Below, piece after piece: positions 2,033 through 63,621 of a stretch of 63,621 nt of DNA; the stretch's first letter is position 1, and each line of letters starts with the position of its first letter. Made by a program: the position numbers and the translations under genes. Below the pieces are notes generated by a model. The model was not told the origin of the DNA, ran no database searches, and saw only the letters and a program-made list of their open reading frames with translations. The stretch comes from Ginglymostoma cirratum (lineage: Eukaryota): contig JAHRHZ010000111.1 in assembly GCA_024137785.1 (NCBI GenBank), positions 34,731,830 to 34,795,450 of the forward strand, written 5' to 3'.

Positions 2033-2460
2033 TTCTTGAGGTTGTAGACTTGCTCGCCGAGCCGGTGTGTTTGATTGCAGACATTTTGTCACCCTGCTAG
2101 GTAACATCATAAGTGCGCCTTCGGTGAAGCATTGGCGTTCTGTCCCGCTGGTTATTTACATGCCTCGGTTTGCTGGGGTGGTTGGTATCAGTTCCGGTTC
2201 TGTTCTTCAGTGGTTTGTATATTGGGTCCTGTTCAATGTGTTTATTGACAGAGTTACGGTCGGAATGCCAGGCCTCCAGGAATCCCACAGCATGTCTCTG
2301 TTACGCTTGTGCTCTTATGGATGTGTTTCCCTAGGTGAATTTATGTCTTTCTTTGTCCGTGTGTATTGAGACCAATGAGAAGTGATCATGTCTCTTTGTG
2401 ACTAGTTAGTGATCCTGTATCCTTCGTGTCAGTTTTCTTCCAGTTTGGCCTGTGTAATGT
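2033..2460 (-). mobile_element. Penelope/Poseidon-type PLE 3' end (GIY-YIG endonuclease remnant plus terminal repeat)
   Basis: Minus-strand translation YTGQTGRKL.RRI..H...KRHD..SLVSIHTDK...FLEAWHSDRNSVNKHIEQDPIYKPL, with stops. Confidence 0.85.
2077..2116 (-). ncRNA. Decayed minimal type-I hammerhead ribozyme motif
   Basis: Reverse complement reads GCA CUUAUGA U GUUACC UAGCAG GGUGAC AAAA UGUC UGC; helix I GCA/UGC and 6-bp stem II intact, core G5 and G12 mutated. Confidence 0.6.
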
Positions 2461-2811
2461 CTGACCCATCTTCTGCACATCTGACCTCACCTCCTCTCTT
2501 CTCTTCCACAACAGCATCAGGGTTCCCCTTGTCCTTACCTACCGGCCCACCAGCAACCACTTCCAGAAGATCATCAGCTACTATTTCAGTTACCTGCAAT
2601 GAGGTACCACCACCAGACACATATTCCCCTCCCCTCCCTTGTCCACCTTCCGCAGGGACATTGCCTCCGGGACACCCTGGTCCAGTCTTCCTTCACCCCC
2701 AACACCTTCCCACAGCCCCACAGCACATTGCCCTGCAACCACCAAATGTTTAGTACCTGCCCACTTACCTTCTCCATCCTCAGTATCTAAGGGCCCAAAC
2801 ATACCTTCCAG

Positions 2812-3141
2812 GTGAAGCAGCACTTTACCTGCACTTCCCAGAATCTAGTCTATTGCATTTGCTGCTCACAACGTGGTCTCCTCTACATTGGGGAAACGAA
2901 GCATAGACTGGGTGACCACTTTGCAGAACACCTACATTCTGCCTGCAAAAAAGACCCTGAGCTTCCAGTTGCCTGCCACTTTAACACACCACCCTGTTCC
3001 TTGGCCAACATCTCTGTCTCTGGCTTATTGCAGTGTTCCAGCGAAGCTCAGTGCAAGCGAGAAGAACAACACCTCATTTTCCACTTGGGGACCCTGCAGC
3101 CCTCTGGTCCCAATATTGAGTTAAATAATTTTAGAGCCTAA
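2812..3141 (+). pseudogene. GIY-YIG endonuclease domain of PLE (remnant ORF)
   Basis: FTCTSQNLVYCICCSQRGLLYIGETKHRLGDHFAEHL...EEQHLIFHLGTLQPSGPNIE: VY...YIG motifs and conserved E and N. Confidence 0.85.
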
Positions 3142-3400
3142 ACTGTCCCATGCACTAGCCCCCTATCCCACATACCAGGCCTTGTTTACCACATAGTCTG
3201 CCATTACACACCATGTGCTCTTAGCCACTAACAGTCTCCATTAACAGGTATTCACCCTCCTAGCCTGATTGTTATCAACTCCTTTGTCTGTCCAACTGTT
3301 TTTCTCTCTCTTTGGGCTCTATCCACACTGATCATTTATTTATTACCCCTCCCCCAACCCTATCTTCTGCATATAAACCAAACTTTCCCCAGCTACCATC

Positions 3401-3438
3401 AGTTCTGAAGAAGGATCACTTGACCCGAAACATTAACT
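3401..3438 (+). ncRNA. Minimal hammerhead ribozyme motif (CpG-decayed)
   Basis: AGUU CUGAAGA A GGAUC ACUU GACCC GAAA CAUU AACU; helix I AGUU/AACU. Confidence 0.65.
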
Positions 3439-6080
3439 CTGATTTTTATTCAGAGGTGCTGCCAGACCCGCTGAGCTTTTCCAAAAACTTTTGTTTTTGT
3501 TTCTGATTTATGACATCTGTAGTCCTTTCAGCTTTTATTTAGCAGAGCTGATTATGTCATCAGTCTACCAATGTCATTATTGTGGGAGGTAGTCAAGAGG
3601 ACTAGAACAGGGAATGTTCCATGAAGAGTGAAACATGTCAGTATCCAAAATTATATCTGTTACTTGAAGCAAATGAAGTTGATCTGCTGTCTGCCAACCA
3701 ATCCTCACTTCATGCTTGTAAATTATCAACAATCCCACATCCTTTGATTTTGCACAATAACCTCTTGAGTGGGACATTATCAAAAGCTTTCAGCTTATGG
3801 TTAGTGGATGAAGTCAACGAGTCCAGATCTTGGAATACAGTGGAAAGACAGTTGAGTATTCGCTGGCAATCTGATCAAGGAGCTCAAGTATCTACAGTCA
3901 CAGAATCTGTAATGAAAAAGAAAACTTGAGGATCATATAGCTCAAAAAACCTAATCAAACAATGCTTTAGAACCTAATCTTGCAGGATAGCTGGAGATCT
4001 GAAGAATTTTAAAGTGAATTCTTATGAGCTGTGGCCACGTGTGAATTGGTCCCAGAAAACGTCAATGAAGCATCAAGATTCATTAAGATAAAGTAACTCT
4101 TGGGGCAAAGTGAAAAATAGGACTGAGTTTAGAGCATAAGTTAGAGTGTTAAATTAGTGATGCTTGCTTTTTTAATTTCTCCTTACAATGGTTGCTTTTA
4201 TTTAAAAATGTTAAGCCTTGTGGTGCAGTTCTGTCATTTAATTGCTAAGTGTTTAAATTTCATCTTTAAATATTAATTACCTCTAACGGCACTTTAACAA
4301 TATTAAAACTAAGGGAGTGATGGGAGTTGCACTGCTGACTTCCAATCCTTATTTGTCTTCCTGTTAGCCATTGGAGAAGAAAAGAGATTCTTTTTGAACA
4401 GTCAGTTCAGTCTCTTTCTGTTGAGGTGGTTTCCTGCTACCCAGTAGCCCCACAGCCAGTACTTTTCCCATCACCAGCAACCCCATGAAATGTAGTGCCT
4501 TGCTGTGAGTTCTTCAAAACCAGTGTTGCAACATTGAATGTAATAATCCATGAAAGCTTCATAATTAGATTGCAGCTCACCTGTAAATAATGCATGGCTC
4601 CATTTTCACCTAACTTTAGACTTAAAACAGTTTTGATGCAGTTATTCTGACATTAAGAGTTTAAAATATGTCAGGTTGCAGGCATGTTTGAAAGTACACA
4701 GCTAATGTCACTGCAGCAATGAATTATTCTTAATATTAAAGGTCAGTCTCTGTAATTTCCTTGTCAAAGTGTATTAGTATTGCAACCATGACACTTGTTT
4801 TCTTTACATCAGTAACTTAATGATCATTTCGAAAATGTTTGTCAGTTAATGTAAATTAGATGAGGCTCTTTTACCGTTTTGTCCACATATTTAACTTTAT
4901 TCCTGATGAGATCATAAACAACAGATATCATTGCACAGCTTTCAGGTTGACAGTGCTAATGGAAATGTTATTAAATATTATGACAATCTATGAAGTGCAT
5001 AGGATAAAATATAACAAACACAGAACTGGTCATTTTCAGTTTTGTCACTGGAAGTAGGCAGCTTAGTCTCGAAGACTGTGTGTGCAATTGTTTACATTCT
5101 TGTGGAATGTTATCAACCCAAAGGGAAGGCAATCAAAAAAAAAGCTTGTACTTTTCCCAAACTCTGCAATGAACTGAGTGTTTCTTATCCCCTGATAATT
5201 TATCATTACTTATCTGAGGGGCAAAATGTTCCATTGGCGTTTGTTTCCAAAGCCAATGGAGAAACAGCCTCTGTCTCTCAGTGAATCAAAGGGTAATGCA
5301 GAGAGTTTGGGAAAGTGAAAGTTGAATTGGATCAGTTATTATCATATTGAATGGCAGAGAAAGTTTGAAGGATGATCCAATCTGTGCCTGATCCTACATT
5401 TTTAAAATGTTTCTTCCGTCAAATATTAATTTCGAATTAGAATCAGTTGAAATCACAAATAAAGTTAAAGACCCACAACTGTCTTAGAGACTTCATATTT
5501 GTAACATATAGTTCTAAGAGAAACAGTTCCACTGGTCTGTTGTTCTACTAACAAGAATTGTATAAAATTGTACATATTTACCCTTCTCCAGATAATAAAA
5601 AAAAGTCTTCCCTAAAGATCTCAGGACAACAAATTGGGAAAATGCATTCATTCTTTCTTCCACCAACTTTATAGCAGATTTGAACCCCAGATGTCATAGT
5701 TTATTGCGGTAAAAATCTTCCAACATGAAATCTGATTGTGTTGGTAACTGGAATTCACATGGGAACTGGAATTGAAATATTTATTTTAGAAGTTATTGAG
5801 CCTTACATTGATCATAGCACAAAGCACAGCCCAGTGAAGTTTTCCTTTCACAGAACACTGCCTGCAGGAACATCATGTCACAATGGTTGATGCTGTGAAT
5901 CAGGTGTTGTGGGCACAATCATAATATTTGAGATGCTGAGTGATAACTAACAATCATGTTATTTACTGTGCTCTGTTTAAAAGGTAAAACTGTGCACAAC
6001 CAAAGCAAAAGGAACAACATAAACAAAAGATAAATAATGAAAAATCAGTCATGATCCTTTTAAGAGGTGTGTGTGAGACA

Positions 6081-6249
6081 ACGAATTAAACTCTCAAATA
6101 AAATAAATAACTGCAGATGCTTGAAATCTGAAACAATAACAGAAACTGCGGTTCGGAACAAGAGTAACTGGACTCAAAACACTAACTGTGTTTCTCTCTC
6201 CGCTGATGCTGAAGGGACCAATGATTTTCTTCAGCAGTTTCTGCTTTCT
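6081..6249. mobile_element. Short fold-back PLE terminal-repeat insertion
   Basis: Minus arm (actgcagatgcttgaaatctg) then plus arm starting at a decayed hammerhead (~6150); perfect 11-bp TSD TGTGTGAGACA at 6070-6080 and 6250-6260. Confidence 0.7.
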
Positions 6250-7389
6250 TGTGTGAGACATTATTGTATTTCAACCACTATCCAGCAAGAATCTTCCATT
6301 TGAGCAGAACCTCTTCAAGGTAGGCATACCTGGAAGAGAATTGAGACATTTGATATGGTTTCTACTTGACAAATCCTCAAAGCAGGGCACTCACTGGACA
6401 AATACAGCATTAAGTCTCGAGGGGCCTTCATTTCTCTGTGAAGGCTCTATCTCAGGGTTAGTGTATAAATTATACATTCTCTTATAGCCTCAGGCCAAGA
6501 AATGATAGTATGGCCCATCCCCACTGATTCTGGAACATCACCATGGCTCATGTCAAGTGTTCCCTCTGCCCCCCAGCACCAGCTGAGAAACTCGCACCAT
6601 TGAAAATATGGTTGGCAAGTCTGATATGAAACACAATTCAGAAATGTGACACATTAGAAGGAACATGATACCAGTCAGCCCCTCAAGCCTGGTCCGCCAT
6701 TCATAAGCTCATGGCTGACCTGATTATTTTTTTTTCCACTTGTGGGGTGTGGGTGCCTCAGCCTAGACTAGCTTTTATTGCCCGTCCCTAATTGCCTCGA
6801 GGGCATTTAATAGTCATAGAGTCACAGAGATATACAGCACGGAAACAGACCCTTAGGTGCAACTTGTCCATGTTGGCCAGATGTCCTAAATAAATCTAGT
6901 CCCATTTGCCAGCATTTGGCCCATATCCCACTAAACCCTCCAATCGCATTATCATGGGTGTGGAGTCACATGTAGGCCAAACCAGGTAAGGACGGCAGTT
7001 TCCTTCCCTAAAGGACACAACCTCAAATTCTTATTTCTGATTACCCCGATAAGCTTTCACCCATTTGCTTAACAAAGGTTTGTCCACCTTTGCCTTAAAG
7101 ATATTAAAGGACTTTGCTTCCGCAACTATTTTAGGAAGAGAATTCCAAAGACTTAAGAAACACAATTTTGACTGATCTGTTTCAAGTGGACAACTTCTGA
7201 TTTTGTGGCCCTTCATTCTAGATTCTCCCACAAGAAGAAGTACCCTCTCACATTGATCCTGTGAACGTCCCTCAGGATCTTGTGTTTTAATTAAACATTT
7301 AACTCTTCTGAGGTCCAGCAGACACAAGTCTAGCTCCATCCAATTTTCCCACATAAGACAACATGCTCATTCCAGATAAAAGTCTAGTA

Positions 7390-7490
7390 CCAAAAAACAG
7401 AAATTGCTGGAAAAGCTCAGTCGGTCTGGCAGCTCCTGTGGAGAGAAATCAGAGTTAACGTTTCGGTTCAAGTGACCCTTCCTCAGAACT
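7390..7490 (-). mobile_element. Solo PLE terminal-repeat fragment beginning at a hammerhead motif
   Basis: Same family as 3400-3540 and 34604-34850. Confidence 0.75.
7453..7490 (-). ncRNA. Minimal hammerhead ribozyme motif, core intact
   Basis: Reverse complement reads AGUU CUGAGGA A GGGUC ACUU GAACC GAAA CGUU AACU; ACGU palindrome in helix III, one stem II mismatch. Confidence 0.75.
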
Positions 7491-7764
7491 TTCATCCAGT
7501 AATTGTTCTCCAAAGCATTTACACCCTCTATTAAATAAGGAGACCTGCGCTGTGCACTGCTCCAGATCCAGTCTCACTCTTAACTGGCATAAATTAAGCA
7601 TGATTGTCCCCCATTTGTATTCAATTCCCCTTGTAATAAATAACTACCTACTAGCTTTCTGAATTATTTGCTGCAACTGCAGACTAACTTTTCTTGATTT
7701 AAGAATAAGGACATACAGATGTCTCTGGATCTGACAGTTTGCAATCTTTCACCATTTCTCTTAA

Positions 7765-8560
7765 GTTTAACATTTAGGTTCAGTTGGCAGTTAGGAAGGC
7801 AAATGCAATGTTAGCATTCATTTTAAGAAGACTAGATACAAGAGCAGAGAGATATACTGTTGAGGCTATATCAGGCTCTGGTCAGACCAAAAAAAAAGTC
7901 AAGTTTTCCTGCTCCTATGATGCTGCTTGGCCTGCTGTGTTCATCCAGCTCCACACCTTGTTATCTCGGATTCTCCAGCATCTGCAGTACCTATTATCTC
8001 TGATCAGACCATGTTTGGAATATTGTGAGCAGTTTTGGTTCCAGTGTTACAGGAGGATGTGTTGGTGTTGGAGGTCTCAAGAGGAGGTTTATATGAATGA
8101 TCCTGGGAATGAAAGGTTCACATATGAGGAGCCGTTGAGGACTCATGATCTGTACTCAATGGAGTTTAAAAGGATGAGGGTGATCTGATTGAAACTTAGA
8201 AAATACTGAGAGGCCTGGATGGAGTGGATGTGGAGAAGATGCTTCCACTAGTAGGAAAGACTAGAACCCAAGGGCACAGCCTCAGAGCGAAGGGACAACC
8301 CTTTAGAACCGAGATGAGGAGGAATTTCTTCAGTCAGACAGTGTAGAATCTGTGGACCTCACAGAAGGCTGTGGAGGCCAAGTCAATGCGTGTATTTAAG
8401 AGAGACATAGACATGTTCTTGATGAGTAGGAGGATCAAAGCTAACACAGAGAAGATAGGAAAATGGGTTTAAGAAACATATTAGCCATGATTGAATGGTG
8501 GAGAAGGCTCGATGGGCTGAGTGGCCTATTTCTGCTCTTACATCTTATGGTTTTATGTTC
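7765..8560 (+). mobile_element. CR1 3' end, interrupted at 7890-7998 by a PLE terminal-repeat fragment
   Basis: AVRKANAMLAFI..LEYCEQFW; CR1 tail near 8510-8560; insertion flanked by tctg(g/a)tcagacca. Confidence 0.8.
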
Positions 8561-10150
8561 TTGTAGTTATTATGCTTTTTTTTTATTCATCCTGCCAAAA
8601 AGAACAATTACATATTTTCCAACATTATGCTCCATTTGACACTTACTTAACAAATCCATATCATTTTGTCCTTACTTGTTCACAACAAATAATCCATCCT
8701 TTACCTTAATTAGCCAATTCACCTTAGCCTGGCCTGCTCTCATGTACTTGTAATTTGCTGTTAATTATTTTTTTAAAAAAATAGCGTCAGACCCACTCTC
8801 TCCTTCAAACTAAATGTAAAATTTAATTGTTTGTGATCACTGCTACCTAGGGTTGTCTTCACCATAAGATAACTAATTAATCACCTAGATAGCCCGTAAC
8901 TTCTCCCTTGATTACCACCGAATATTTCTGATAAGCTTCCATTAATTTTTCCTTTACACCCCACCTTAACACATGATTCTTCTTCTGTTTCAACAATTGA
9001 CTTCTTGACTTTAACACTTCTCATTTCAACCCAAACCTGTTCCAAATCTTGATTTCATAAACTTATCTCACTCATACCTGTTAGTGTAAGTATCATCATT
9101 AAGTTACAGAGCAACTTCTCCACCTTTCCTAGTTTCCCCTCATTTTTAAATGCCCCATACCCTTCAGGATTTAGGCTTCAATCCTAAAGACAAGTCTCTG
9201 TAATGGACACCAGGTTGTACATATCCATTTCTACCTGTTCTCCCAGTGCATCTGTTTTGTTTGAAATGCTACTAGCATTCAAACCCTGTGCCTTTACTTT
9301 TACATCTTTATTGTTTTTGAGAGGTTGGGGTGCCTGGGATGTAGGTTGAGAATGCTGATTGTGAGCAGTGCTAATGTGGACAGCATGGAGAAGACATGAT
9401 AGAATTGCAAAGTGGAAGCTGTGGAGATCAGATTGTTGGTGGGCAGGGACCTCGAAGGAAAGGTCACAGAGGGGTCACAAAAGATATCAGTGAGGAAATT
9501 CATGGGCAGTTTGGAAAGATGTCAGATCATGGTGGAGATTTGTCAGGGAAGATAACACATTTGGTGGTGGTGATGGTTGGGGGTCCATGGGTGAGAATCA
9601 GACCATTAATACTCAATGAATCTCAAACTCATCTTCTCTCAGTGAAAAAATACTCAACAATGGTTTAGCTGACAGTAACTTGATAATTGCTTTGAATAAA
9701 ATACAATCCATACTGGTCCAATTGGGACTGTCTCAAATTGATTTAGAATGGTCAAGTAGAACACTGGATGATTTGGACATAGTCCTCAATCAAACAATGG
9801 GTCCAATGTGCCATGATTCAGTGGATAGTCACTGGTCTTTGGTGATCAGTCGGATGTCAACAGATGAATTCTGTTCACGAAGTAACATGCAAAATCAATT
9901 TTCAGTACATTCGCACTTTTATTTTGGTGGCAAAATGGATATTAGCAAACTAAAATATTCCTCCATAAACGTTTTTGAAGTGCGATATGTTGGATTTACT
10001 GCTGCCCATGCATTTAATGTAACACCCTACATGTATGCTAGATGGAAAGTTTTTAATTATCAACACAATCTCCAACTGTGTTTAGTTTTAAAATGATCCA
10101 ATCATGATATCCAATTACCTTACACATCATACTTCAGAATACATTTCCAG

Positions 10151-14544: not shown

Positions 14545-15930
14545 AACAGAATCATGGAATTTTACAGGTTTAGAGGAAGGCCATTTGGCCCATCGTGTTT
14601 ATACTGGCTCCCGAAAGAGCTACCCAGCTAGTCCAGTTCTTTGGCTCTATCTCTGTAGATCCCTAACTTCATCATTTTCAAATATGTATCTAGTTCTCTT
14701 TTGAAATCACCTATGGAATCCAGCTCCACTACTCCCCAACTCGGCTCATTCCAAATCCTCACAACTCTCTGAGTAAAATCATTTCTCCTCATCTAACTCC
14801 TAACTTTCTTGCTGACAATCTTGAAATCGTAATCAATAATCATTGACATGCCAAATGTAAGAAACAGAATATCCTTCCTTACCCTGTCAAAATTGTTGAT
14901 AATTTTGAACACTCCAATGAGATAATCTCTTAATTTTCGCTGCTCCAAGAAAGATAGTCCAATTTCTCTAATCTTTCCTTGTATCTAAAATCCCTCAGTC
15001 CTGGTTCATTCTGGTAAATCTCCCTTGCGCTCTCTCCAGGGCTTTAAAATCCTTCCTTAAACAAAAGGCCCAGAACTGAACACAATACTCCAAATCTAGT
15101 CTGACCAATGAGCTGTAGAGGTGCAGGATCACCTCCTTGCTTTGGTACTCTATGCCTCTACTTATAAACCCAGCCCGAAACGTCAAGTTTTCCTGCTCCT
15201 ATGATGCTGCTTGACCTGCTGTGTTCATCCAGCCCCATGCTTGTTATCTCAGATCCTACAAGCCTTCTCAATGACTTTTACAACTTGCCCTGCCAACTTT
15301 AGGTAATTATGCACATGAATCCCAATCACCCCCTGCTCCTGTAGAATCCTCAAAGTTGTACTATTGAGCCTGTATTGGCTCTCCATGTTTCTTCTAACAA
15401 AATACCGCACATTTCTCTGCTTTGAAATTCATCTGTCAGATGTCGGCCCATTTGGCCAACTTGCCAACATTCCTCTGAAGTCACTCAATAATATCCTTGC
15501 AATTAACAATTCTCCCTAGCTTAGTATCACCTGAATATTTAGAGATCTTGTCCAGAACACCAATCTCCAAAATGTTTATATAAATCAGAAAAGGCAAGGA
15601 TCCCAACACCGATCCCTGGGGAATGCCACTTTTAACTCATCTCCAATTTCCTAACCAATCTGCCATGTTGAAATGCTTTCTGAGAGTCCACATATACATC
15701 ATCCACTGCACTACCCTCATCCACCTGCCTGTGTCACTTCGTCAAAGAACTCAATTAAATTTGTCAGACATGACCTGCATTTGACAATGCCATGTTTACT
15801 GTCTACTATTAACTTACCTTTTCTCTAAGCATATATTTAGCTTATCCCACATTAAGACCTCCATCAGTTTTCTCACTTTGATGCCAAGATGACAGCTCTA
15901 TGGTTTCCTGAGTTATGCTTTGCCCTGTGT
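14545..15930 (-). mobile_element. CR1 LINE 3' 1.4 kb (RT to tail), decayed; PLE fragment inserted at 15173-15250
   Basis: ORF 14995..15186 (GFISRGIEYQSKEVILHLYSSLVRLDLEYCVQFW); GIPQGSVLG motif near 15600-15630. Confidence 0.85.
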
Positions 15931-19650: not shown

Positions 19651-19677
19651 AACTCACTGTGAAATAAAGCACTTTAT

Positions 19678-19812
19678 TTCAGTTCTGAAGAAAGGTCACT
19701 ACACCCGAAGCATTAACTGAACTTTGTCTTCACAGATGCTGCCAGACCTGCAGAGTATTTCCAGCAATTTCTGATTTTGTTTCTAATTTCCAGAATCTTT
19801 GGTTTTTTTTTG
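19678..19812 (+). mobile_element. Solo PLE terminal repeat starting at a hammerhead motif
   Basis: UUCAGUU CUGAAGA...GAAG CAUU AACUGAA (7-bp helix I, core decayed); TSD taaag(c/t)acttt at 19665-19675 and 19813-19823. Confidence 0.75.
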
Positions 19813-20025
19813 TAAAGTACTTTGTTCACTGTAAAGTACAGTGGGATATTCTGAGCTTGTGATGGGCACTATTTAAATTCAAGTTGTTTGCTTTTTTTTA
19901 ATGTGTACTTTTCATCTTTCCAATAGTCTGATCTGGATCACAGAGGTGGACTGTAATTTGTCCTTGATAACAAGCATGGGGCTGGATGAACACAGCAGGT
20001 CAAGCAGCATCATTGGAGCAGGAAA

Positions 20026-20061
20026 ACTTGACGTTTCGGGCCTAAACCCTTCATCAGAAAT
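20026..20061 (-). ncRNA. Minimal type-I hammerhead ribozyme, intact core
   Basis: Reverse complement reads AUUU CUGAUGA A GGG UUUAGG CCC GAAA CGUC AAGU. Confidence 0.8.
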
Positions 20062-20625
20062 GGGGGAGGGGAAGAGGGTTCTGAAATAAATAGGGAGAGA
20101 GGGGGAGGTGGATAGAGGATGGATAGAGGAGAGGATAGGTGGAGAGGGGGCAGACAAGTCGAAGAGGCGGGGATGGAGCCAGTAAAGGTGAGTGTAGGTA
20201 GGGGGGTAGGGAGGAGATAGGTCAGTCCAGGGAGGACGGACAGGTCAAGGGGGCGGGATGATGTTAGTAGATAGGAGATGGGGGTGTGGCTTGGGGTGAT
20301 CTCTGATACAATTTTAACCCCACTGCGAAGCCTCTTCTAAGTTCATCCAGCCCCATGCTTGTTATCTCGGATTCTCCAGCATCTGCAGTACCTTTTATCT
20401 CTGATACAATTTTAACCCCACTGCGAAGCCTCTTCTAAGGATGCCTACCATCCTCCCTGGACTGACCTATCTCCTCCCTACCCCCCTACCTACACTCACC
20501 TTTACTGGCTCCATCCCCGCCTCTTCGACTTGTCTGCCTCCGCTCCACCTATCCTCTCCTCTATCCATCCTCTATCCGCCTCCCCCTCTCTCCCTATTTA
20601 TTTCAGAACCCTCTTCCCCTCCCCC

Positions 20626-20661
20626 ATTTCTGATGAAGGGTTTAGGCCCGAAACGTCAAGT
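20626..20661 (+). ncRNA. Minimal type-I hammerhead ribozyme, intact core
   Basis: AUUU CUGAUGA A GGG UUUAGG CCC GAAA CGUC AAGU; predicted cleavage after C20657 (GUC). Confidence 0.8.
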
Positions 20662-21399
20662 TTTCCTGCTCCTATGATGCTGCTTGACCTGCTGTGTTCA
20701 TCCAGCCCCATGCTTGTTATCTCGGATTCTCCAGCATCTGCAGTACCTTTTATCTCTGATGTAATTTGTCCTTCCTCTGTGGGGAAATGTCGATATATCT
20801 TGACTTAAAGCAAATAATAACCCCATTTTTGTCCAGTGCTCACTGATGCTGATTTCCAGGTAAACACGTTGTGGTCTCAATTTCCTAAGTGTTTCAGTTC
20901 TTAGGGGAGCAGCTCAAATTTTTAGCAGTTGACTGGAATAGATGTGGTGTTAGGCCGCTTGTAATAGTTATTGCTTTCCAAACTGCATCCATTATGTTTC
21001 CTTTGGCTTCACTTTTATTAAAATCCAGACTGCCAAAACTAAATTTCAGTTGGAATCTGATGTAATTCAGGATTCTGACATGAAACTCACCATGAACTTG
21101 GTCTTTATGTTCCATGTAACCCATCCACTCTTATCTGTGATCATTACGTATGTCACCTAATACCTCAAGAGGAAGTGACTAGCTAAACAACAGCATGATT
21201 CATGCAATACAGATGAGCAACTTGGGGAAAGCACGTGTGAATTGCATGGTGAAGTAGTATAAAATAGAAAAATTAAAGAAGGGACAAAAAGCTTTTTGCA
21301 TGTTAAGTATCAGCACCTTTGGCAGCACAGGGCAAAACTAAATGTGGCAGGATAACAGGTGCTGAGTGACGCCATTCCACATTTTCTAATTTTCTTTTG

Positions 21400-25168: not shown

Positions 25169-25171
<3 letters not shown>

Positions 25172-25200: not shown

Positions 25201-25209
<9 letters not shown>

Positions 25210-34603: not shown

Positions 34604-34850
34604 AACAAAAACAGAAGTGGCTGCAAAAGCTCACCAGGTCTGGCAGCATCTGTGAAGGAAAAAAACAGAGTTAACGTTTCAGGTCTGGTGACCCTTCCTC
34701 AAAACTGTTCTGAGGAAGGGTCACCAAACCCGAAACATTAACTCTGAATTTTTTTTCTTCACAGATGCTGCCAGGCCTACTGAGCTTTTTCAGCAACTTC
34801 TGTTTTTGTTCCTGATTTACAGCATCCGCAGTTCTTTCGGTTTTTCTTTC
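34604..34850. mobile_element. Fold-back PLE terminal-repeat element with two head-to-head hammerhead motifs (34669-34706 minus, 34706-34743 plus)
   Basis: Arms are reverse complements around 34706; TSD AGATTGAAC at 34598-34606 and 34851-34859. Confidence 0.85.
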
Positions 34851-35399
34851 AGATTGAACTTTGATCAAGTCACTCAATCTTCTAAATTTCTAAGAGGTTC
34901 ACCCATTTTACATGATCTTCCTCAAAATTTTATCTTTTGAATAAATCTATGCTGCTCACCCAAAGTCAATATATCCTTCCTAAGATCTATAGCCCAAAAT
35001 TGTTCTGTGTGTAAAAGGTCAACAATCCTGATGGAGAGTTCTAGACATTTGACCCAGCAAGTGGATTAGGCAAAATGTAGTTTCGAGTCAGGATGGTGTG
35101 AGACTTGGGAGGAAATTTGCAGGGTGTACCCTGATTTTCTGCTAAACTTCTTCCTCCAGGTGGTAGAGGTTTGGAAGTTTTTGTCAAAGGAGCCTATGTG
35201 TTGCTACATTGTATTTTGTAGATGGCATGTGCTCTGTGCACAGGTGAAACAAGTGATATTTGAAGGTGGTGAATGGATTGCCAATGAAGCAGATGGATTT
35301 CACCCAGAGTGTGAGCGTTGTTGGAGTTGTACTCATCCAGGCAAGTGGGGAGTATTACATCGCATTCCTGATTTCTGCTGTGTAGCTTAGAGGGCAGGA

Positions 35400-35535
35400 A
35401 TAAAACAAAGAACTCTGGATGCTGGAGATCCGAAACATAAGAACAAAGTGCTGGAGAAACTCAGCAGGTCTGACAGCATCTGTAGGGAGGAGAACAATTA
35501 ACAGGTTGAGTCCAGTGACCCTTCATCAGAACTGA
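35400..35535 (-). mobile_element. PLE terminal-repeat fragment with decayed hammerhead (35495-35534), inside a LINE remnant (~35020-36360, minus)
   Basis: Reverse complement CAGUU CUGAUGA A GGGUC ACUG GACUC..., GAAA lost. Confidence 0.65.
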
Positions 35536-35606
35536 AAGAACTGGGAAATGGTATCAGTGTAAACTTCATCAGAACTGAAAGAACTGGGAAATGGTATCAG
35601 TGTAAA
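35521..35606. repeat. Perfect 43-bp tandem duplication
   Basis: cttcatcagaactgaaagaactgggaaatggtatcagtgtaaa x2. Confidence 0.95.
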
Positions 35607-36894: not shown

Positions 36895-37454
36895 TTTGAA
36901 ATGTGTAGTGACTTGTGCAAATTTCCAACCTAGAGGAATAAGTGCTGAAACGAGAGAAATTTGAAAGAGTGTCATGGTGTCTGCAATCTTTTCACTTACT
37001 TCCTTTCAAGGCTCTGCAAAAGAAATCATCTGACTTTGGGATTTGCTTCTTTAAAAGGAGAAAATAATCCCATTGCTGTTTGTGTCAATTTTGGTACCCT
37101 GCACCCGAATCAATGTCGTGCTTACCTCTTACTGTAAATAGAGATACAAAGTGATTCTATGAAATGTCCACCATTTCCTTGTTTTGCCAACGTCACTGCC
37201 ACCAATTACTCCTGACCACTTTTGCTAATTAAAATTGCAAACATTTGTTTTAATTCTGATAATGATTGAAATATTATCGCCTCTGGTGTGGCTCTTGCAG
37301 CATTAAGGGAGGTTCAGTTTTTCAGAATTATGAAGGATATTGGTAACATGATTAGGAAATTTGTGGCCAGTGACTGGAGGATAACCCAATAACCAATAGC
37401 CAAAGAATAGAACTGAGAGAATTGGTAAAGGGAGGGAGTTGAAAAAAATTTTAT

Positions 37455-37670
37455 AGATTACACAGTGTGGAGCTGAATGAACACAACAGGACAGGCAGCA
37501 GCAGAAGAGCAGGAAAGCTGACATTTCGGGTCGGGATCCTTCTTCAGAAAGAAGGGTCCCGACCTGAAACATCAACATCCCTGCTCCTCTGATGCTGCCT
37601 GGCCTGCTGTGTCCCTCTAGCTCCACACTGTGTTATCTCTGACTCCAGCATCGGCAGTTCTTACTATCTC
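37455..37670. mobile_element. Fold-back PLE terminal-repeat element, junction inside hammerhead motifs (~37549)
   Basis: Minus-arm motif CUGAAGA A GGAUC CC GACCC GAAA UGUC; plus arm starts aagaagggtcccgacctgaaacatc; TSD-like aaaaatttt both sides. Confidence 0.8.
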
Positions 37671-38779
37671 CGAAAAATTTTCATTGTAGCATTATTTTGA
37701 TCCAGAATGCTTTGCTGTGAAAAGTGGTGGAAACAAATATAATAGCTTTCACAGAAAATTGATAGTATCCTTGAAAGGAACTTTTAGAGCTCAGAGAAAG
37801 GATCAGGTGGTAAAGCTACATAGATAGGTTTTTCAAGCATCTTACATAGCCAAATCGCTTCCTTCTGCATTATAATTCTACAATTCAATCTACTGAGCTT
37901 CTATCATCAATTCAGTACCCATTGATCTTCATGTTCACACTTCGTAAATAACAAATGTTAAAATGTGAGGTTCTGGTAGCACGATAAGATGTGCAGTTAA
38001 GAATTAAATTCTGTAGCAGTAGACTAAAGTAGAAATGTTTGCCCTAAATCTGTGCTGCACTGTTTTCCAATTGAATTGATGCCTCTGAAGGCTTGAAAAT
38101 GAGCTAGGCTGCAATTAGCTTTGCTTGCCAGCCTAAGGTGATAATAAACTGTTAGTGCATTTGCAGTAAATGACTTATACTTTCAGGTAAACTACCATGT
38201 CTTTCCAACTTATTCAAGCTTCATTTGAGTTCTTTTGCAAAAGGATAATTACCTAAATTTTCAACCTGGTGGGGATACTTCTCTGCATCAGAAAAGACAA
38301 ACTCTTCTTAAAAATTCCCTTGCCACTTAAAATGAATGTTTCCCATATTTTAATCTTTCATCCAAGGAATCAAATCGTAAATTGTACTTCAAAGCATCAT
38401 CCATGAAGTATACAATTTTAATATACTGAGATTTAGTTAAGAACAAACCATCAACTTACAAGGATAATAAATCATTCCAAGCTTGGATCCTAGAAAAAAT
38501 AGTGCTTTAATTTCCTCCAGCAATTCAAAATCAGAGTTCCAAAACTAAATGCTGTTCTAGAAGTCAAATTAAAGCAGCTGTCTTGGACTGCATTGAAAAT
38601 AAAACTTGAGCATTGCCCTAAGTATTTGTTTTTTCAATTTTTTTGATTAAATAGTTGCTGTGTTTGAATAAATCCTAAATCTTTCTCAATGACTCGGAAA
38701 TTTGCAGTGTCCTTGCCCAACCAGTTGCCCAGGATGTTTGCTTGAGGCAAAGTTTAGCAACATATCTACAAGAAGACAC

Positions 38780-43880: not shown

Positions 43881-44990
43881 CCAAGTCTCCAAGCCTCCAA
43901 GCCTCCGCTTGGTTTTCCCGACGTAGAGGAGACCACATCGGGAACAGCGGATACAATATACCACTTTAGCAGATCTCCAGGTGAACATCTGTTTAATGTG
44001 GAAGGTTTTCTTGGGGCCTGGGATTGGGGGAGAGAGGAGGTGTAGGGGCAGGTGTAGCACTTCCTGAGGTTGCATGGAAAAGTTCCAGGGGTGGTAGGGC
44101 GAGTGGGGAGTGTGGAGCGGACATGGGAGTCAAGGGGAGAGCAGTCCCTCCAGAAGGCAGGCAAGAGTGGGGAGGGAAAAATGTCCTTGGTAGTGGGGTC
44201 AGATTGCAGGTGGCCGAAGTGTATTTCCTCAACGTACCACCCCACCAACCTCAGGATTCAACGCATCATCCTCCTATACTTCTGCCACCTGCAATCTGAC
44301 CCCACTACCAAGGACATTTTTTCTCCCCACTCTTCTCTGCCTCTGCTGTTCCCGATGTGGCCTCCTCTACATCGGGGAAACCAAGCGGAGGCTTGGAGAC
44401 CACTTTGTGGAACACCTACGCTCAGTTCGTGACAAACGACTGCACCTCCCAGTCGCGAACCACTTCAACACCCCTCCCACTCCTTGTACGACATGTCCAT
44501 CTTGGGCCTCCTCCATTGCCCCAACAATGCCACCCAAAGGTTGCAGGAACAGCACCTCATATTTCGCTTGGGAACCCTGCAGCCCAATGGTCTCAATGTG
44601 GACTTCACAAGCTTCAAAATCTCCCCTTCCCCAACTGCATCCCAAAACCAGCCCAGTTCGTTCCTGCCTCCTTGACCTGCCAGTCTTCCCTCAACTGACC
44701 AACCCCCATCCCAACTCCCCACCTACACTCACCTTTACTGGCTCCATCTCCGCTTCCTTGACCTGTCTGTCTTCTCTCCACCTATCTGCTTCTTTATCCA
44801 CCTTCTATCACCGCCTCCCCCTCTCTCGATTTATTTCAGAGTCCCCTGCCCCTCCCCCATTTCTGAAGAAGGGTCCAGACTCAAAACATCAGCTTTCCTG
44901 CTCCTCTGATGCTGCCTGGCCTGCTGTGTTCATCCAGCTCTACCCCTTGTTATCTCAGATTCTCCAGCATCGGCAGTTCCTACTATCTCT
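43881..44990. mobile_element. Neptune-type PLE 3' end with 5' inversion (minus arm ~43881-44224, plus arm ~44221-44990)
   Basis: Minus arm GTFPCNLRKCYTCPYT and VVYCIRCSRCGLLYVGKTKRRLG; plus arm LYIGETKRRLGDHFVEHLRSV..EQHLIFRLGTLQPNGLNVDF; terminal repeat with decayed hammerhead 44859-44893. Confidence 0.9.
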
Positions 44991-49514: not shown

Positions 49515-49641
49515 ACTTCACCTGACAAAGGAGTGGCGCTCTGAAAGCTTGTGTTTTTGTATAAACCTGTTGGACTATAACCTGATGTCATGTGACTTTT
49601 GACTTTGTCCACCTTAGTCCAAAACCAGCACCTCTACATCA
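49515..49641 (+). mobile_element. Solo terminal repeat of another PLE-type family with hammerhead motif at its 5' end (49519-49553)
   Basis: CAC CUGACAA A GGAGU GGC GCUCU GAAA GCUU GUG; helix I CAC/GUG, AGCU palindrome, G8 changed to A. Confidence 0.65.
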
Positions 49642-50729: not shown

Positions 50730-50799
50730 TTTTGTGATGCTGTTGTAGAGTTTCAGCTTCATTTAAGCATTGGAAATACAAATGACCACATAAGATTAT

Positions 50800-55414: not shown

Positions 55415-56811
55415 GATGGAGCTAATGTCCTGCACTGCAGTTGACACCAGAGGAATAGTAATGACAAGCAGCAGATCTGTGAGTTTCCAGTGCCTTGGAG
55501 CTCCTGGAAGTATGACTACAAGAGGGCCAAACTATCACTCTCTCCAAGTCAGAAAAATTATCAAACCGAACTTGGGAGAAACTTCTATGAATATTAAGAT
55601 ATTCACTGGGGACTGAGGGGACAGAAGGTTTGACTCCAGCTGTCCAGTGGACACAGTTTCGAGGCAGACGTAGGAATTGCTGGGAATCGAGGAAAGCTTT
55701 TAATATTCTCTCTCTGTGTTCTAGGACTTTGGCCTAGTTGTATAATTTAAACATTTCCACACTCTTGCCCTTTCACACCCACCATAAAACTTCCCATTAC
55801 CTTTCTGTGTCACTTCCTGATATCTCATGCCCCACTGCACACTCCCAAAGACTGTTCATGGTCTCCATGCCAACTTAGAGATGATAGGTGCCTACCCTAA
55901 GCCCGCACACATTATCCTTAGCCAATTCCCCCAGCATCCACCACGCTCAGACCTTAAGATCCATGCTGAGATGCAATAGCAAATTTAAATATCCCTTATA
56001 AGCTTCTATACTTCAAGTAAAGCTCTCATTCAGAAAAAACCCATTTGAATACCCACAAGTTTTTATTTGATAAAGTAAATATCTATATTCAGAGCTCACA
56101 TCAAAGACAGAAATTAATTTAGAGCTGTTAATCAAACTGAACTTAAACCACCACCATCACCCCACTGTGATAAAGATGGGTTATGGAAGCACTCAGTATT
56201 AATCCTGCCATGATAATCTCATTGAATAAACATGTACTAAAATTGCAAGCACTGATGTTTTTCCACCTGGCTCACAGCAAGACTTTTTCAAAGTTTACAG
56301 GATAGTGTATTTAAACAATTAACAGTATCACAGACCTTATCCACTGTTTTAAAGCATTTGTGTTTGTCAGCAGTAAAGCTATGTGATTGTCTCTGAAGAA
56401 CATCAGCAGGTTTTTCTCAAAGTTGTCATGCCTACAACACACTCTTTCCACATAACCAATCCGCTCACCATGCTACAAACTTAGAATAGCCTTTATTGTC
56501 AAATGTACTCAAATGGGTGCAGTGAAAAGTTTGTAACGTCGCCTTTTGATTACATCTTTGGTAGAGACGACTTAGGTACAGATACTTTTAAGTGTAATTA
56601 CAGAGTGAGAAAAGACATAGTGCTGTTACAGAGTTAAAAAAAGGAGTAGCATGGGAACAGTTGAAAAAGTCCAGAAAGATAATAAGTGACAACAAGTCAA
56701 TGCCTGCTGGCCCCAGAGCATAAGGCCAGGCTGCCCATACATGCTGGCCTCCATCCAGGACTTGGTCTGCTTCCTCACTAGAATTGGCCTGTTCACTCTG
56801 CTGCTGCCGTC

Positions 56812-57078
56812 GGTCTCAGCCCGTGCTCCCTCCACTGGGAGACTCGGCCCAGGCTCACTCCACTGGGGGACTCAGACCGCACTCACTCCACTGGGGGACT
56901 CAGACCGCACTCACTCCACTGGGGGACTCGGCCCACGCTCGCTCCACTGGGGTACTCGGCCCGGACTCACTCCACTGGGGTCTTGGCCCGCGCTCGCTCC
57001 ACTGGGGGACTCGGTCCGCACTCACTCCACTGGGGGACTCGGCCCACGCTCGCTCCACTGGGGTCTCAGCCCGCGCTC
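56812..57078. repeat. GC-rich minisatellite, 28-bp unit, about 9.5 copies
   Basis: ctccactggg recurs at 56830, 56858, 56886, 56914, 56942, 56970, 56997, 57025, 57053. Confidence 0.95.
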
Positions 57079-58799
57079 CTCATCCATCATTTCACTGACG
57101 GTGTGGTCACATGCAAGCATTTCACACATGAAAAGTCCTTTCTCACCACTATTCTGACAATCTTGGGAATTTATTTCTGGACCCTAACCTTATCACATTT
57201 ATCAGTGAAGGAAAAATAATTATGTAGATCGTGGAATGAAGGCAGATGAGAGGTAGAATGGGATGGTTCCTATTCCCCCTAACTTCAATTTCCATTGCTC
57301 TGTGCTCTACACAGGTCTTTGCAAGCCAGATGTGAAGATATGATTAAAGGTAAACAATGGTAAGCAGCATTCAATTGTCAAGAACAGGGTACAATAGCAA
57401 TTGACGTCCTGAGGCAGTTTGTCTCCTACAACCTTAGGTACTAGAAATGCATCATCTATGTGCACACACATTGCAGTAAACGAACTTTTCCATTTCCAAA
57501 GCCATCTGACAGTTGATGAAGTGGTGCGTATTTCATCCTTGAAGGATATCAGCTCACATACTAAAGTCTCCTTTCATAGCAGTGTCTCTCACTCTGCACA
57601 GAAGGAAACAGTTGCAGACTCTGAACACCTGAAATAATTTCAGAAAATTCTGAAAGCTCTCCTCAGACCATGCAGCATTGTTGATAAATAAACAAAATTG
57701 TTTATTTCAGTTTCTATGGTCTTTCATCAGGACCAGTCCTGCACTATTTTCTTCCTGCCATATCCAAATTAAAGTAACCTTAAAAATATCACTCTTTCTA
57801 TTTTTAGGAGAATTTAATTGGGGATTGAGTATGTAACCCAAGTTTTAATGACAGAGGGCTAACACTGAAAATATCATTACACAGCTTGGTGGTGTTGTCA
57901 ATTAAATAATTGCTTGCAATGGTATCAGAAAATAATGGTCCAGGACAACAAAGTGGTGACAGCAAGCTGCTTGGTAATGAGTAACATATTTACGTTGCCA
58001 ATTTCGCTCAAGTCATAAAACCTTTGCTGCATCATTATGCCAATCATGAGTCTGTAGAATTGACAATCAAAACTTCATTTATATCATTTTGATGTGTTTT
58101 CACTCGAGTACAAAATAAATTAAATAGTTCTGAATAACTGTGTCCACCTTGTGTTAATCCCTTCCAAAAATATCCCTGACAACTTGTAGGTCCTGTTTCT
58201 GACATCTGACTTTCGTCTTAATATTCTGCTCCAATTGTTGGCACTCCCCATTTAAGTTATGATAGAATGTTGATTTCTGTGGCAGCATGTCTATTTTTAT
58301 TCTCATTGTCAATCTGAATAATCATTGGTGGGTCTCCAGTGGGTCCACCAAATGCACTGACTCTTGGGAGACTTAGGATTAGAATTCTGGCCAATGAACA
58401 GCTTCCACTGCATGTTCACTAGCGCAAAGGCAGAGTTGAACTGCTCTGCACTGTTTCCAGTTCCTTGACAAGATACATACTGCTAAAACTCAATGATCTT
58501 TTTTGTTCATGTACCTTACATGTTTGGTTTATAGTTTGAGAGAATCTTTGCACCAATGCATCAGCTGTCCTTAATATCCATTCAAATAAATACATTTTCA
58601 ATACAACTCTTTTAGTTACCTAGCTCTTCGAATTTCTTCATTATTTTCCCTGCTCAATTCATCCTGTTCTAATGGCACTAAATCTCTATTGCTTTCCAGC
58701 ATATTTTTACATCTTAAACCCTTTTCTAAATCCTCTCCAGTTCAGTAATTTCCTTCCTTTAACAGGGCGACAAGAATTGCACATGCTACTCCAGAAGTA

Positions 58800-62539: not shown

Positions 62540-62885
62540 GAGGTGACAAGGTGGCTCAGTGGTTAGCCCTGCTGCCTGACGGTGCCAGGGTTCTGGATTT
62601 GATGCCAGCATTGGGGGACTGTCAGTGTGAGTTTGCACATTCTCTCCATATCTCTGGGTGCTCCGGTTTCCTCCTGCAGCCTAAAGATGTGCAGGTTAGG
62701 TGAACTGGCCAAGATAAATCGTCCATGGTGTCCACGGATGTGTAGGCTAGGTGGATCAGCTATAATAAATGTGGGGTTACAGGATATGGTATGGTGGTGG
62801 GTCTGCGTGGAATGCTCTTCAGAAGTCAGTGTGGACTCAATGGGCCAAATGTCCTCCAACTGTACTGTAGGAATTTTGTGATAGA
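62540..62885 (+). mobile_element. HE1-type V-SINE
   Basis: gtggctcagtggttagccctgctgcct...gagtttgcacattctc...ccggtttcctcc. Confidence 0.85.
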
Positions 62886-63081
62886 AAAAAAATTGAAAGT
62901 GTGATGTATGTAAGGTCACCTTAGTTCATTCCACCTAAAGTGATGCTCATTCTTTGCCTCTGAATAGGCAATTCTTTAAAAATTAAACCAAGGATTTCAC
63001 TTCCATTTTCTTAGTTTTTTTTTATTGTGAAACAGAACTCCTCAGGTATCACAAATTACCTGCATTACTAAATTGAACAGA

Positions 63082-63284
63082 CCCACGCCTTGTTATCTCG
63101 GATTCTCCAGCATCTGCAGTACCTTTTATCTCTGTTCTACTTCAGCTGTTTGATTGGAGAGAGATAATAGGTACTGCAGATGCTGGAGAATCCAAGATAA
63201 CAAGGCGTGGGGCTGGATGAACACAGCAGGCCAAGCAGCATCATAGGAGCAGGAAAGCTTGACGTTTCGGGCCTAGATCAGACC
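63082..63284. mobile_element. Two young PLE terminal-repeat fragments (63082-63134 plus, 63160-63284 minus)
   Basis: Same family as 19966-20759; 16-bp direct repeat CTTCAGCTGTTTGATT at 63140-63155 and 63285-63300. Confidence 0.85.
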
Positions 63285-63511
63285 CTTCAGCTGTTTGATT
63301 AACTGGATAGAAGAATGACATTTTATTCTCAAATTTCTGTAAGGTCACATTACAGATCTGTGATTTGTTTTGGGCTTATGCAATTTGTAAATATGAATCT
63401 GGAAAATGGATGTATGATATAGCCCAAGCTCTACATTACAAATGTTTGTGCTTCAGGTTTAAAAACTACTGCTTCATGGACCACCTACAGAAACCAACAT
63501 GACAAAATTCA

Positions 63512-63621
63512 GAGATAACAAGCATGGGGCTGGATGAACACAGCAGGTCAAGCAGCATCATAGGAGCAGGAAAACTTGACGTTTCAGGCCTAAACCCTTC
63601 ATCAGAACGTCAAGTTTTCCT
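63512..63621. mobile_element. Young fold-back PLE terminal repeat, cut by the window end; hammerhead core at 63574-63607 (minus)
   Basis: Reverse complement UU CUGAUGA A GGG UUUAGG CCU GAAA CGUC AAGU; orientation flips at ~63606 (aacgtcaagttttcct). Confidence 0.85.

Follow-up and report, generated by a model that had tools for sequence, protein, structure and literature searches.

Terminal repeats of Penelope-like elements (PLEs) that carry minimal hammerhead ribozymes (min-HHRs), with thousands of solo copies, are an already known class. Min-HHRs in the terminal repeats (pLTRs) of metazoan PLEs were described by Cervera and De la Peña in 2014, with totals of about 4,000 motifs in the coelacanth genome and 9,000 in that of Xenopus, and no shark row is present in supplementary alignment file 2 of that study (PMC4209133). 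EN+ PLEs insert with an inverted 5'-truncated copy, an optional tail at one end and target-site duplications of 8-10 nt, and a zinc-finger linker is present in Neptune and Nematis (PMC3846280; 10.1101/2021.04.23.441226). Furthermore, Frangieh et al. studied PAc, a Poseidon PLE from the green anole, in 2024 (PMC11167929), and retrozymes have been reported from one cartilaginous fish (PMC7229834; 10.64898/2026.07.22.740005).

The window considered in the present work is a stretch of 63,621 nt from Ginglymostoma cirratum. According to our analysis, with a probability of about 0.88, its motifs are minimal type I hammerheads of PLE terminal repeats, present as 5'-truncated, often head-to-head and mutated copies that are likely inert. 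As reported in a preliminary description of this DNA, all 13 coordinates listed there bear a hammerhead-shaped motif (seven on the - strand and six on the + strand, Table 1), the extra nucleotide following A9 is seen in each of them, and the cleavage position expected after C20657 is right. Eleven insertions account for the 13 motifs; at least three more decayed family B copies (1197+, 6154+ and 57730-) and seven partial pieces had been overlooked. Scanning the window with a relaxed descriptor retrieved eight matches scoring at least 5/6, three of them 6/6, while 20 shuffles in two-letter blocks gave 0-1 and 0, respectively, an excess that places the motifs above chance.

Table 1. Hammerhead motifs and the PLE-derived insertions that carry them in the window.
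Feature	Position	Strand	Remarks
Family A minimal hammerhead, all features intact	20626..20661	+	C3 = 20630; predicted cut after C20657
Family A minimal hammerhead, all features intact	20026..20061	-	C3 = 20057; antisense arm of 19966..20759 insertion
Composite PLE insertion	19966..20759	.	14-nt target-site duplication at 19952 and 20760; arms 97% complementary over 279 nt
Tail-less inverted arm of 19966..20759 insertion	about 19966-20297	-	
Short tandem piece of 19966..20759 insertion	about 20341-20449	+	Tail plus 46 nt past tail
Tailed arm of 19966..20759 insertion	20449-20759	+	
Family A tail-less arm	63509..63621	-	C3 = 63605; C11.1>U; inversion junction leaves 2 bp of helix I; + partner only begins, cut off by window end
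Family A head-to-head pair	37453..37672	.	C3 = 37547 on -; AUGU; helix II mismatch; + arm begins within core; 9-nt target-site duplication
Family A PLE 3' end	43893..44990	+	GIY-YIG remnant 44329-44630, 3' UTR, hammerhead (C3 = 44863, G12>A), tail
Inverted linker/endonuclease piece of family A 3' end	43893-44218	-	
Family B PLE 3' end	2423..3545	+	Linker and GIY-YIG remnant 2423-3141, 3' UTR, hammerhead (C3 = 3405; core intact, ACAU, helix II mismatch), tail
Family B short copy from -4	7385..7490	-	C3 = 7486; core and palindrome intact; without tail
Family B short copy from about -6	19679..19812	+	C3 = 19685; G10.1>A, A15.1>G
Family B head-to-head pair	34607..34850	.	Junction at helix I 5' strands of both; C3 = 34702 on -, C3>U; C3 = 34710 on +, core intact, ACAU; 9-nt target-site duplication
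Family B copy	35395..35606	-	C3 = 35529; GAAA box lost; 43-nt tandem duplication repeating 5' half of core
Older family B head-to-head pair	1064..1310	.	C3 = 1197 on +, heavily decayed
Older family B head-to-head pair	6081..6250	.	C3 = 6154 on +; four core changes; 11-nt target-site duplication
Very decayed family B-like copy	57605..57733	-	C3 = 57730; weak alignment
Family A partial copy from about +22	7894..8003	+	3' motif part only; tail; 8-nt duplication
Family A partial copy from +17	15173..15253	+	Without tail
Two family A pieces, tail to tail	63078..63285	.	63078-63134 (+) downstream of motif; 63157-63285 (-) begins in helix II; 16-nt target-site duplication
Family C PLE 3' end	2000..2400	-	C3 = 2113; G5>U, G12>A, AUGU; C-terminus of a different GIY-YIG endonuclease, frame running into hammerhead; left boundary approximate
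Family D single copy	49515..49640	+	C3 = 49522; G8>A, C11.1>U, AGCU palindrome; boundaries approximate

The architecture agrees with the published consensus (supplementary alignment of PMC4209133): as in the min-HHRs of that study, the motifs are of type I, with CUGANGA plus the extra nucleotide, G10.1-C11.1, a short helix I and the loopless palindrome ACGU (AGCU also occurs in its turtle row), and they are found as many solo truncated copies and close opposite-strand pairs. Family A differs in its helix II of only 4 bp. The core CUGANGA ... GAAA ... UH is undamaged in seven of the 13 motifs, the other six having one to three changes (G5>U and G12>A in family C, G8>A in family D, and others in the copies 44859, 19678, 34669 and 35495). 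The 10.1/11.1 pair is G-C in nine motifs, G-U in three and A-C in one; helix I has at least three contiguous pairs in 10/13, and the first four pairs of helix II are unbroken in 9/13. The loopless palindrome at 15.1-16.1 is kept in six; five of the seven non-palindromic motifs have AUGU or ACAU, that is, single CpG transitions (CpG-decay products), and the CpG observed/expected ratio of the window is 0.23. Core, both helices, G10.1-C11.1 and palindrome are all kept only by 20626 and 20026; in a third copy described as intact, 7453, the third helix II pair is a G-A mismatch. The stems listed for families A and B turned out to be consensus sequences only, AUUU/AAGU being present in two of five A copies and the full GGGUC/GACCC in none of the six B copies.

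The families had been presented as four unrelated ones with covarying stems, which is overstated. The alignment of A with B covers the entire motif plus about 130 nt of downstream sequence (20625-20749 with 35534-35407: 70%, E 1.2e-8), and the endonuclease remnants upstream of them share 71% identity over 273 nt; they are therefore homologous and represent one lineage sharing helix II, which leaves at most three lineages. In helix I, A and B differ by one two-sided change, U.G against G-C. Since families C and D are represented in the window by one decayed copy each, both with core mutations, what a comparison of the lineages reveals is a common architecture and not a measured covariation. In metagenome contigs having the same core and helix II (14 clusters, from families other than those of the window), helix I, which was left out of the search pattern, is paired at 33 of 42 positions; permutation gave a mean of 21, and none of 100,000 permutations reached 33/42.

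The assignment to PLE-type terminal repeats, proposed in the preliminary description, is shown here for A, B and C, each with a motif directly downstream of a GIY-YIG endonuclease remnant and in sense with it. For D, which has neither an adjoining ORF nor a relative in the window, a PLE origin is suggested by motif shape only. The GIY-YIG match at 2791-3138 (E 0.0012, 19.6 bits) is under the Pfam cut-off of 22.6, and its longer relatives are named from a ray and a shark; moreover, tblastn assigned 2423-3135 and 43893-44630 to remnants of a PLE linker and endonuclease. Neither an RT domain or RT core nor a full-length element was found in the window, the copies being 5'-truncated; an RT-like YIDD motif, judged by eye, is present in P0001. 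The linker motif C-x4-C-x2-C occurs in the 43829-44257 frame, in P0001 and in P0003, and is decayed in the B copy. A zinc-finger RT-EN linker is a feature of Neptune, common to Nematis too, so that A and B are probably of Neptune type, unlike PAc, a Poseidon (PMC11167929). The relatives of family C include P0028, an RT plus GIY-YIG protein with an RVT_1 match; P0028 and P0024 lack, by eye, the CxxC linker, for which the Penelope/Poseidon clade may be compared. The peptides of these relatives across the motif (TDDVT and TEDVT..GDET) would, by back-translation, fit an intact core.

These repeats are very abundant, with 26,349, 17,912, 10,846 and 778 contigs in four runs matching one 497-nt piece, and we attribute the motif density to this abundance and not to per-site selection for ribozyme activity. 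The density of one ribozyme per 5 kb proposed previously counts remnants, and intact motifs amount to one per 21-32 kb. With 2-3 complete motifs in the 63.6 kb of a single window, their local density may be above that implied by the totals of PMC4209133.

Five insertions are flanked by target-site duplications of 14, 16, 11, 9 and 9 nt; in a chance control, shared words of at least 9 nt occurred in 21 of 1000 random flank pairs. In all five complete inverted pairs at the pLTR level, one arm has a tail of about 35 nt and the other has none, and the contigs of relatives depart from the element at 20723 and at 20757-20760. Most head-to-head junctions have overlaps of 1-3 nt, and the ORF-level inversion 43893-44218 ends at neither pLTR site. 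The 5' ends of nine of the 21 measurable A/B fragments fall at -6 to -2, i.e., 2-6 nt upstream of CUGANGA, values that are partly by-eye at microhomology junctions, with the arms of one insertion not independent of each other and the upstream reference for four single B copies being one old copy; none of the 21 starts within 3 nt of the cleavage site. An initiator-like sequence with A at -4 is found on the sense strand in all six A/B copies that keep this region, and the sharp 5' cluster is absent from the non-shark families compared. The 5'-end cluster, together with the tail rule, suggests that an uncleaved RNA starting at the hammerhead was copied; in PAc, unprocessed RNA is the main template (PMC11167929), which fits the absence of cut-site starts here.

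The insertions share with EN+ PLEs the head-to-head arms, partial tandems, one-arm tail, target-site duplications and an initiator-like sequence in the pLTR, and differ in that most are only 100-250 nt long and the junction often lies inside the hammerhead (PMC3846280; 10.1101/2021.04.23.441226). Like PAc, they have AT-rich targets and two classes of 3' end, 30-40 nt apart, downstream of the hammerhead; the available text on PAc reports neither a 5'-end cluster at the first helix of the hammerhead nor a rule of one tailed and one tail-less overlapping arm (PMC11167929).

By analogy with the green-anole PLE, an RT-endonuclease protein would nick both strands of an AT-rich target, and priming of reverse transcription would take place at one or the other of two internal positions in the RNA (about +95 and about +130, counted from C3), giving the tail-less and the tailed arms. 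Many cDNAs would have stopped where the RNA itself ends, at a constant point about 4 nt before CUGANGA that is most likely the transcription start; microhomology would then have joined both cDNA ends. Templates starting upstream of CUGANGA would be uncleaved. To cleave in the active parent element, the motif would require either dimer formation through the ACGU palindrome or the help of the PLE protein.

A further step, which we put forward tentatively and do not consider probable as a whole, would be to read the short copies as a fossil map of the PLE RNA, with the hammerhead as first structure of the transcript and as a protein-gated switch. In a Neptune-type lineage of sharks and rays, the initiator would make the first base of helix I the capped one; the RT would prime at two fixed downstream sites on two uncleaved RNAs, one per nicked strand, and its run-off at the cap would scatter hammerhead-headed pieces of 100-135 nt across the genome. 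The ribozyme would then remove a capped 32-nt mRNA head without being needed for insertion, and cartilaginous fishes could rank among the genomes richest in hammerhead motifs.

The short copies might instead form a separate non-autonomous family of about 100-135 nt, SINE-like or retrozyme-like, having its own RNA and mobilised by PLE proteins, instead of being run-off products of the parent mRNA. Most B copies do span about -4 to +97 or +135 without upstream PLE sequence, and solo pLTR and retrozyme derivatives of PLEs have been described (10.64898/2026.07.22.740005, PMC3846280). We nonetheless consider such a family unlikely, since the sequence extends upstream into the 3' UTR and endonuclease in 3405, 44863, 20057 and 20630, the start is identical in both subfamilies A and B, and retrozyme monomers would start at the cut site, as none of the 21 fragments does. 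Animal non-LTR retrozymes likewise consist of type I hammerheads in non-coding PLE-related repeats, but they are head-to-tail arrays with a complete motif per unit (PMC7229834; 10.64898/2026.07.22.740005); no such array occurs among the repeats listed for the window, where same-strand motifs are at least 827 nt apart, which does not fit a non-LTR retrozyme.

Self-priming on an antisense template with its 3' end near -4, which would account for both the inverted pairs and the common 5' boundary, is somewhat less probable still. It has been proposed for the palindromic head-to-head junctions of rotifer Penelopes (PMC3846280), and the short overlaps at most junctions agree with it. However, single non-inverted copies (7486 and 19685) also begin at -4 to -6, each of the two arms has a fixed end site of its own, as in a sense-template reaction (PMC11167929), and the initiator-like sequence lies on the sense strand wherever it is kept.

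As for cleavage at these loci, the activity as dimers put forward as possible for intact copies finds no support. The two complete copies are opposed arms of a single insertion, and in a read-through RNA all 36 motif bases are predicted to pair with the antisense arm; predicted read-through hairpins bury the motifs (-665, -149 and -144 kcal/mol), and helix I of the best copy has a pairing probability of 0.0 in four longer contexts. The ACGU duplex, of 4 bp, is worth only -1.7 kcal/mol. No tandem pair able to form a dimer is present in the window, the closest same-strand motifs being 827 and 945 nt apart, with core-mutated copies among them. These predictions point to motifs that are likely inert where they are located; the folding programs omit the hammerhead core and protein help, so activity in trans lies outside what they can exclude. 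A dense layer of young intact copies working in host transcripts, as dimers in trans or aided by protein, is very improbable. In its favor are the two copies with all features and the third nearly so, an abundance that could supply trans partners, and the in vitro cleavage of a PLE hammerhead upon addition of PLE protein (PMC11167929). Against it, besides the mutual antisense position of the two intact copies, the lack of a same-strand intact pair and the weak dimer helix, six of 13 cores are mutated and seven palindromes broken; weak cleavage has been published for metazoan min-HHRs even in dimeric form (PMC4209133), or cleavage only in the presence of the PLE protein (PMC11167929), one of nine Xenopus dimers cleaved (10.64898/2026.07.22.740005), and no RNA-seq reads start or end at the anole cut site (PMC11167929). 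Lastly, chance matches out of repeat-rich DNA, for which one could invoke the Rfam covariance models (no hammerhead family among 14 matches at E <= 10) and the single copies of C and D, each missing core positions, have a negligible likelihood, given the excess over shuffles, the location in PLE terminal repeats, the helix I pairing above the permuted mean and the family C peptides; for A and B they are refuted.

The known class gains taxa, and perhaps a high copy number, from the shark and ray families. They have some value for questions of mechanism, as it is still debated what the hammerhead does in PLEs (PMC11167929; 10.1101/2021.04.23.441226). In a genome rich in short copies, one can count at which distances from the cut site cDNAs start and stop. 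Should the -4 cluster and the missing cut-site starts hold true genome-wide, they would demonstrate in vivo that the template is uncleaved, and would place the transcription start at the hammerhead.

A hammerhead-shaped motif was found at all 13 sites where the preliminary description had placed one, by a CUGANGA scan of the two strands together with a check of each site. A relaxed descriptor retrieved eight sites in the window with at least five out of six criteria and three with all six, whereas 20 shuffled sequences yielded 0–1 and 0 sites, respectively. From Rfam, no hammerhead match was obtained on the window at E <= 10. The motifs are real and their class, the minimal hammerhead of Penelope-like elements (PLEs), was correctly named, but they represent an already described kind. 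As for the other Rfam matches, miRNA-like and 23S-methyl, they were below threshold, with the best ones falling on inverted pairs, and were rejected.

The copy-by-copy scoring revealed an intact core in 7 out of 13 motifs and a conserved helix III palindrome in 6; all the features are kept only in 20626(+) and 20026(-), lying in opposite arms of the composite family A insertion (19966-20759). Copy 7453 has a helix II mismatch, and five broken palindromes show the C>T or G>A change left by decay of a CpG (the CpG observed/expected ratio of the window is 0.23). The hammerhead positions G5, G12, and G8 matter for catalysis; family C lacks the first two and family D lacks G8. The importance of G8 and C3 (the core cytosine used here as reference point) for catalysis has been reported (PMC11167929). 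Counting remnants, the density is 13 in 63.6 kb, i.e., one per 4.9 kb, derived from 11 insertions; counting complete motifs, it is 2–3 in the window, i.e., one per 21–32 kb. The literature gives totals of about 4,000 minimal hammerheads for the coelacanth and about 9,000 for Xenopus (PMC4209133), and of more than 6,000 for a coral. Tens of thousands of contigs from related animals match one family A piece, which implies that the family is very abundant; the densities above apply to a single window, and summed contig depth was kept out of copy-number estimates.

The window consists of animal DNA rich in repeats and contains LINE-type endonuclease remnants, one of which matches Pfam Exo_endo_phos_2 (E 1.3e-8). 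Eighteen segments, whose limits are approximate, are PLE-derived and together make up about 5.4 kb, or 8.6% of the window; several PLE pieces, 7894 and 15173 among them, sit inside LINE-type repeats. The GIY-YIG piece at 2791-3141 gave 13 hits, with longer relatives in Mobula hypostoma and Stegostoma tigrinum, which makes a cartilaginous fish the likely source of the DNA. The family B motif 3405 and the family A motif 44863 lie sense-downstream of GIY-YIG remnants (2423-3141 and 44329-44630, respectively), and the cysteine motif in the linker is that of Neptune and Nematis according to Craig et al. (10.1101/2021.04.23.441226). Families A and B are homologous over the motif and the following 130 nt, with 71% identity between the endonuclease remnants of the two. 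Family C is on the minus strand, at the end of another endonuclease frame; a HMMER search retrieved 27 related proteins, one of which has both RT and GIY-YIG matches, and a word-index protein search did not retrieve any relative. At 2097-2117 (-), this frame extends across the core of the motif to end in loop II, with the same overlap in the relatives' peptides. The peptides of these relatives (10 out of 27 were read) would traverse the motif in a way compatible with an intact core. Family D has no ORF alongside and no relative within the window. Since A and B are homologous, the lineages number three at most, and the four unrelated families initially proposed are not supported.

A scan of viral_contigs gave 0 matches, and the whale shark repeat table (PMC8455134) has no Penelope row. 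In the literature searched, which included few subscription papers and lay outside Repbase and Dfam, no title was found on shark minimal hammerheads or on 5' ends clustered at a hammerhead; one cartilaginous fish is covered by a 2026 preprint (10.64898/2026.07.22.740005).

The covariation among families that had been put forward is not supported by the copies in the window: a single pair, in helix I, differs on both sides between the two families A and B (U.G vs. G-C), and the wider differences involve single decayed copies and do not represent a covariation test. To test the architecture outside the window, it was searched for in metagenome contigs with a pattern leaving helix I unspecified. 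At least 115 loci were obtained, whose 98 distinct matches fell into 15 clusters; one cluster of 25, having a longer helix III, was excluded from the helix I test. In the other 14 clusters, 33 out of 42 helix I positions were paired in register, compared to 21 with permuted partners and 8–18 in slid registers. None of the metagenome matches listed shows similarity to the sequence downstream of A or B. The hammerhead architecture is thus real and common in other DNA, at loci unrelated to the A/B downstream region. In the excluded cluster, made up of 25 distinct matches of L005 type, helix III is palindromic and longer, and the register of the cut is displaced by two. Head-to-head hammerhead pairs also occur in the metagenome contigs: loci L007, L008, L066, L098, and L100, five in all, harbor head-to-head hammerhead pairs with 30–310 nt between them, as in the window.

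The anatomy of the insertions was analyzed by placing 23 A/B fragments relative to C3. Their 3' ends fall mostly into two classes, at about +93..+104 and +124..+141, and all five complete head-to-head pairs of PLE terminal repeats (pLTRs) have one arm of each class; a sixth pair is truncated by the window end, and the ORF-level inversion at 43893-44218 is an exception to the two-class rule. Target duplications of 14, 16, 11, 9, and 9 nt surround five insertions, four of which are inverted pairs, so that each such pair represents a single event. Shared words of at least 9 nt occurred in 21 out of 1000 random flank pairs, and duplications of 7 and 8 nt are close to what chance would give. Contigs from related animals diverge from the A piece at 20723 and at 20757-20760, into AT-rich flanks. 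The 30–40-nt tail and the inverted arms are shared with known PLE insertions (PMC3846280; 10.1101/2021.04.23.441226), and Frangieh et al. (PMC11167929) traced this structure to two internal RT start sites. Around the young insertion (19952-19965 / 20760-20900), one contig of 1258 nt, belonging to a related animal, follows the window sequence from 20760 on and differs leftward, and may be the empty site of this insertion. Another single contig (run X14) joins 20665 to 20625, repeating 41 nt with the whole motif head to tail, and is a candidate natural tandem dimer.

Concerning activity, the isolated 36-nt motif has a hammerhead-like fold of -3.4 kcal/mol vs. -9.3 for its best fold; the ACGU duplex is predicted at -1.7 kcal/mol, and the predicted pairing probability of helix I is 0.0 in four longer contexts. 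The local activity envisaged for the copies is not supported. In a predicted read-through of 19961-20760, all 36 motif bases pair with the antisense arm (minimum-energy pairing), and motifs on the same strand lie no closer to each other than 827 nt. Metazoan minimal hammerheads were reported not to cleave as monomers and to cleave weakly as dimers (PMC4209133), one out of nine Xenopus dimers cleaved (10.64898/2026.07.22.740005), and the anole PLE motif required protein for cleavage and was itself dispensable for insertion (PMC11167929). At 20658-20661, the young A subfamily has an extra A on the helix I 3' strand, giving four contiguous pairs; older copies and many of the relatives' contigs do not have it and keep only two. 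Loose contig ends at 20658 were rejected as a cleavage trace, because they continue in pLTR sequence and reflect the subfamily without one A. The relatives' sequences are contigs from four runs, a kind of data that does not report on RNA ends or expression.

Past the predicted cut, the B copies have UUAAC, a pyrimidine tract, and then CAG, resembling a branch point and a 3' splice site. An AUG follows the CAG in four out of six named B copies; the other two have CAG without AUG. An AG is absent from the corresponding place in family A, and the likeness in B may therefore be due to chance. In Drosophila Penelope, an intron ends at the hammerhead (PMC4209133).

Coordinates of splice-like stretches and of other features observed in the window
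Feature	Position	Strand	Remark
Splice-like stretch in B copies	34739-34766	+	Example
Splice-like stretch in B copies	19716-19738	+	Example
Splice-like stretch in B copies	7436-7456	-	Example
Tandem duplication	35521-35606		Exact, 43 nt; flank plus 5' half of hammerhead core
GC-rich minisatellite	56782-57092		28-nt unit, about 11 copies
Endonuclease-RT LINE remnants	17948-19067, and many other stretches	-	Probably CR1 type
Stop-free frame	9620-10096	+	158 codons; no Pfam match; exon or chance

Lastly, we considered the 5' ends of the A/B fragments, 21 of which have a measurable start (two ORF-linked copies were excluded). Nine out of 21 start at -6..-2 from C3; no start falls 3 nt or less from the cut site, predicted after C20657 in 20626(+). 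A uniform null over -260..+90 matched this in 0 out of 200,000 trials, one over -30..+30 (16 fragments) gave p = 6.5e-5, and the inverted arms alone (six out of nine at -6..-2) gave p = 7.9e-4; these values derive from a crude null, with some starts placed by eye and paired arms being non-independent. In the relatives' contigs, joints touch 20625-20627 (-5..-3) in 6 of the 15 rows shown, out of 27. The initiator consensus is YYANWYY, and all six A/B copies retaining the site fit it with A at -4 (background 1.3% per position); given that A and B are related, this corresponds to one or two independent cases. Families C and D do not have this fit, and no downstream promoter element was seen by eye at +28 from the proposed start. 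Internal promoters are known in PLE pLTRs (PMC2377424, PMC3846280). In the largest non-shark metagenome family the start group is broad (12 out of 51 at 7–24 nt upstream); since 5' boundaries are spread in the metagenome families, the sharp cluster at -4 is not general. A reverse transcriptase travels along the RNA from 3' to 5', and stalling caused by a structure should thus occur on the 3' side; a stop at the 5' edge of the structure would, in turn, point to an RNA end, possibly a transcription start. The 5'-end cluster is the sole lead of this analysis deserving a genome-wide count.
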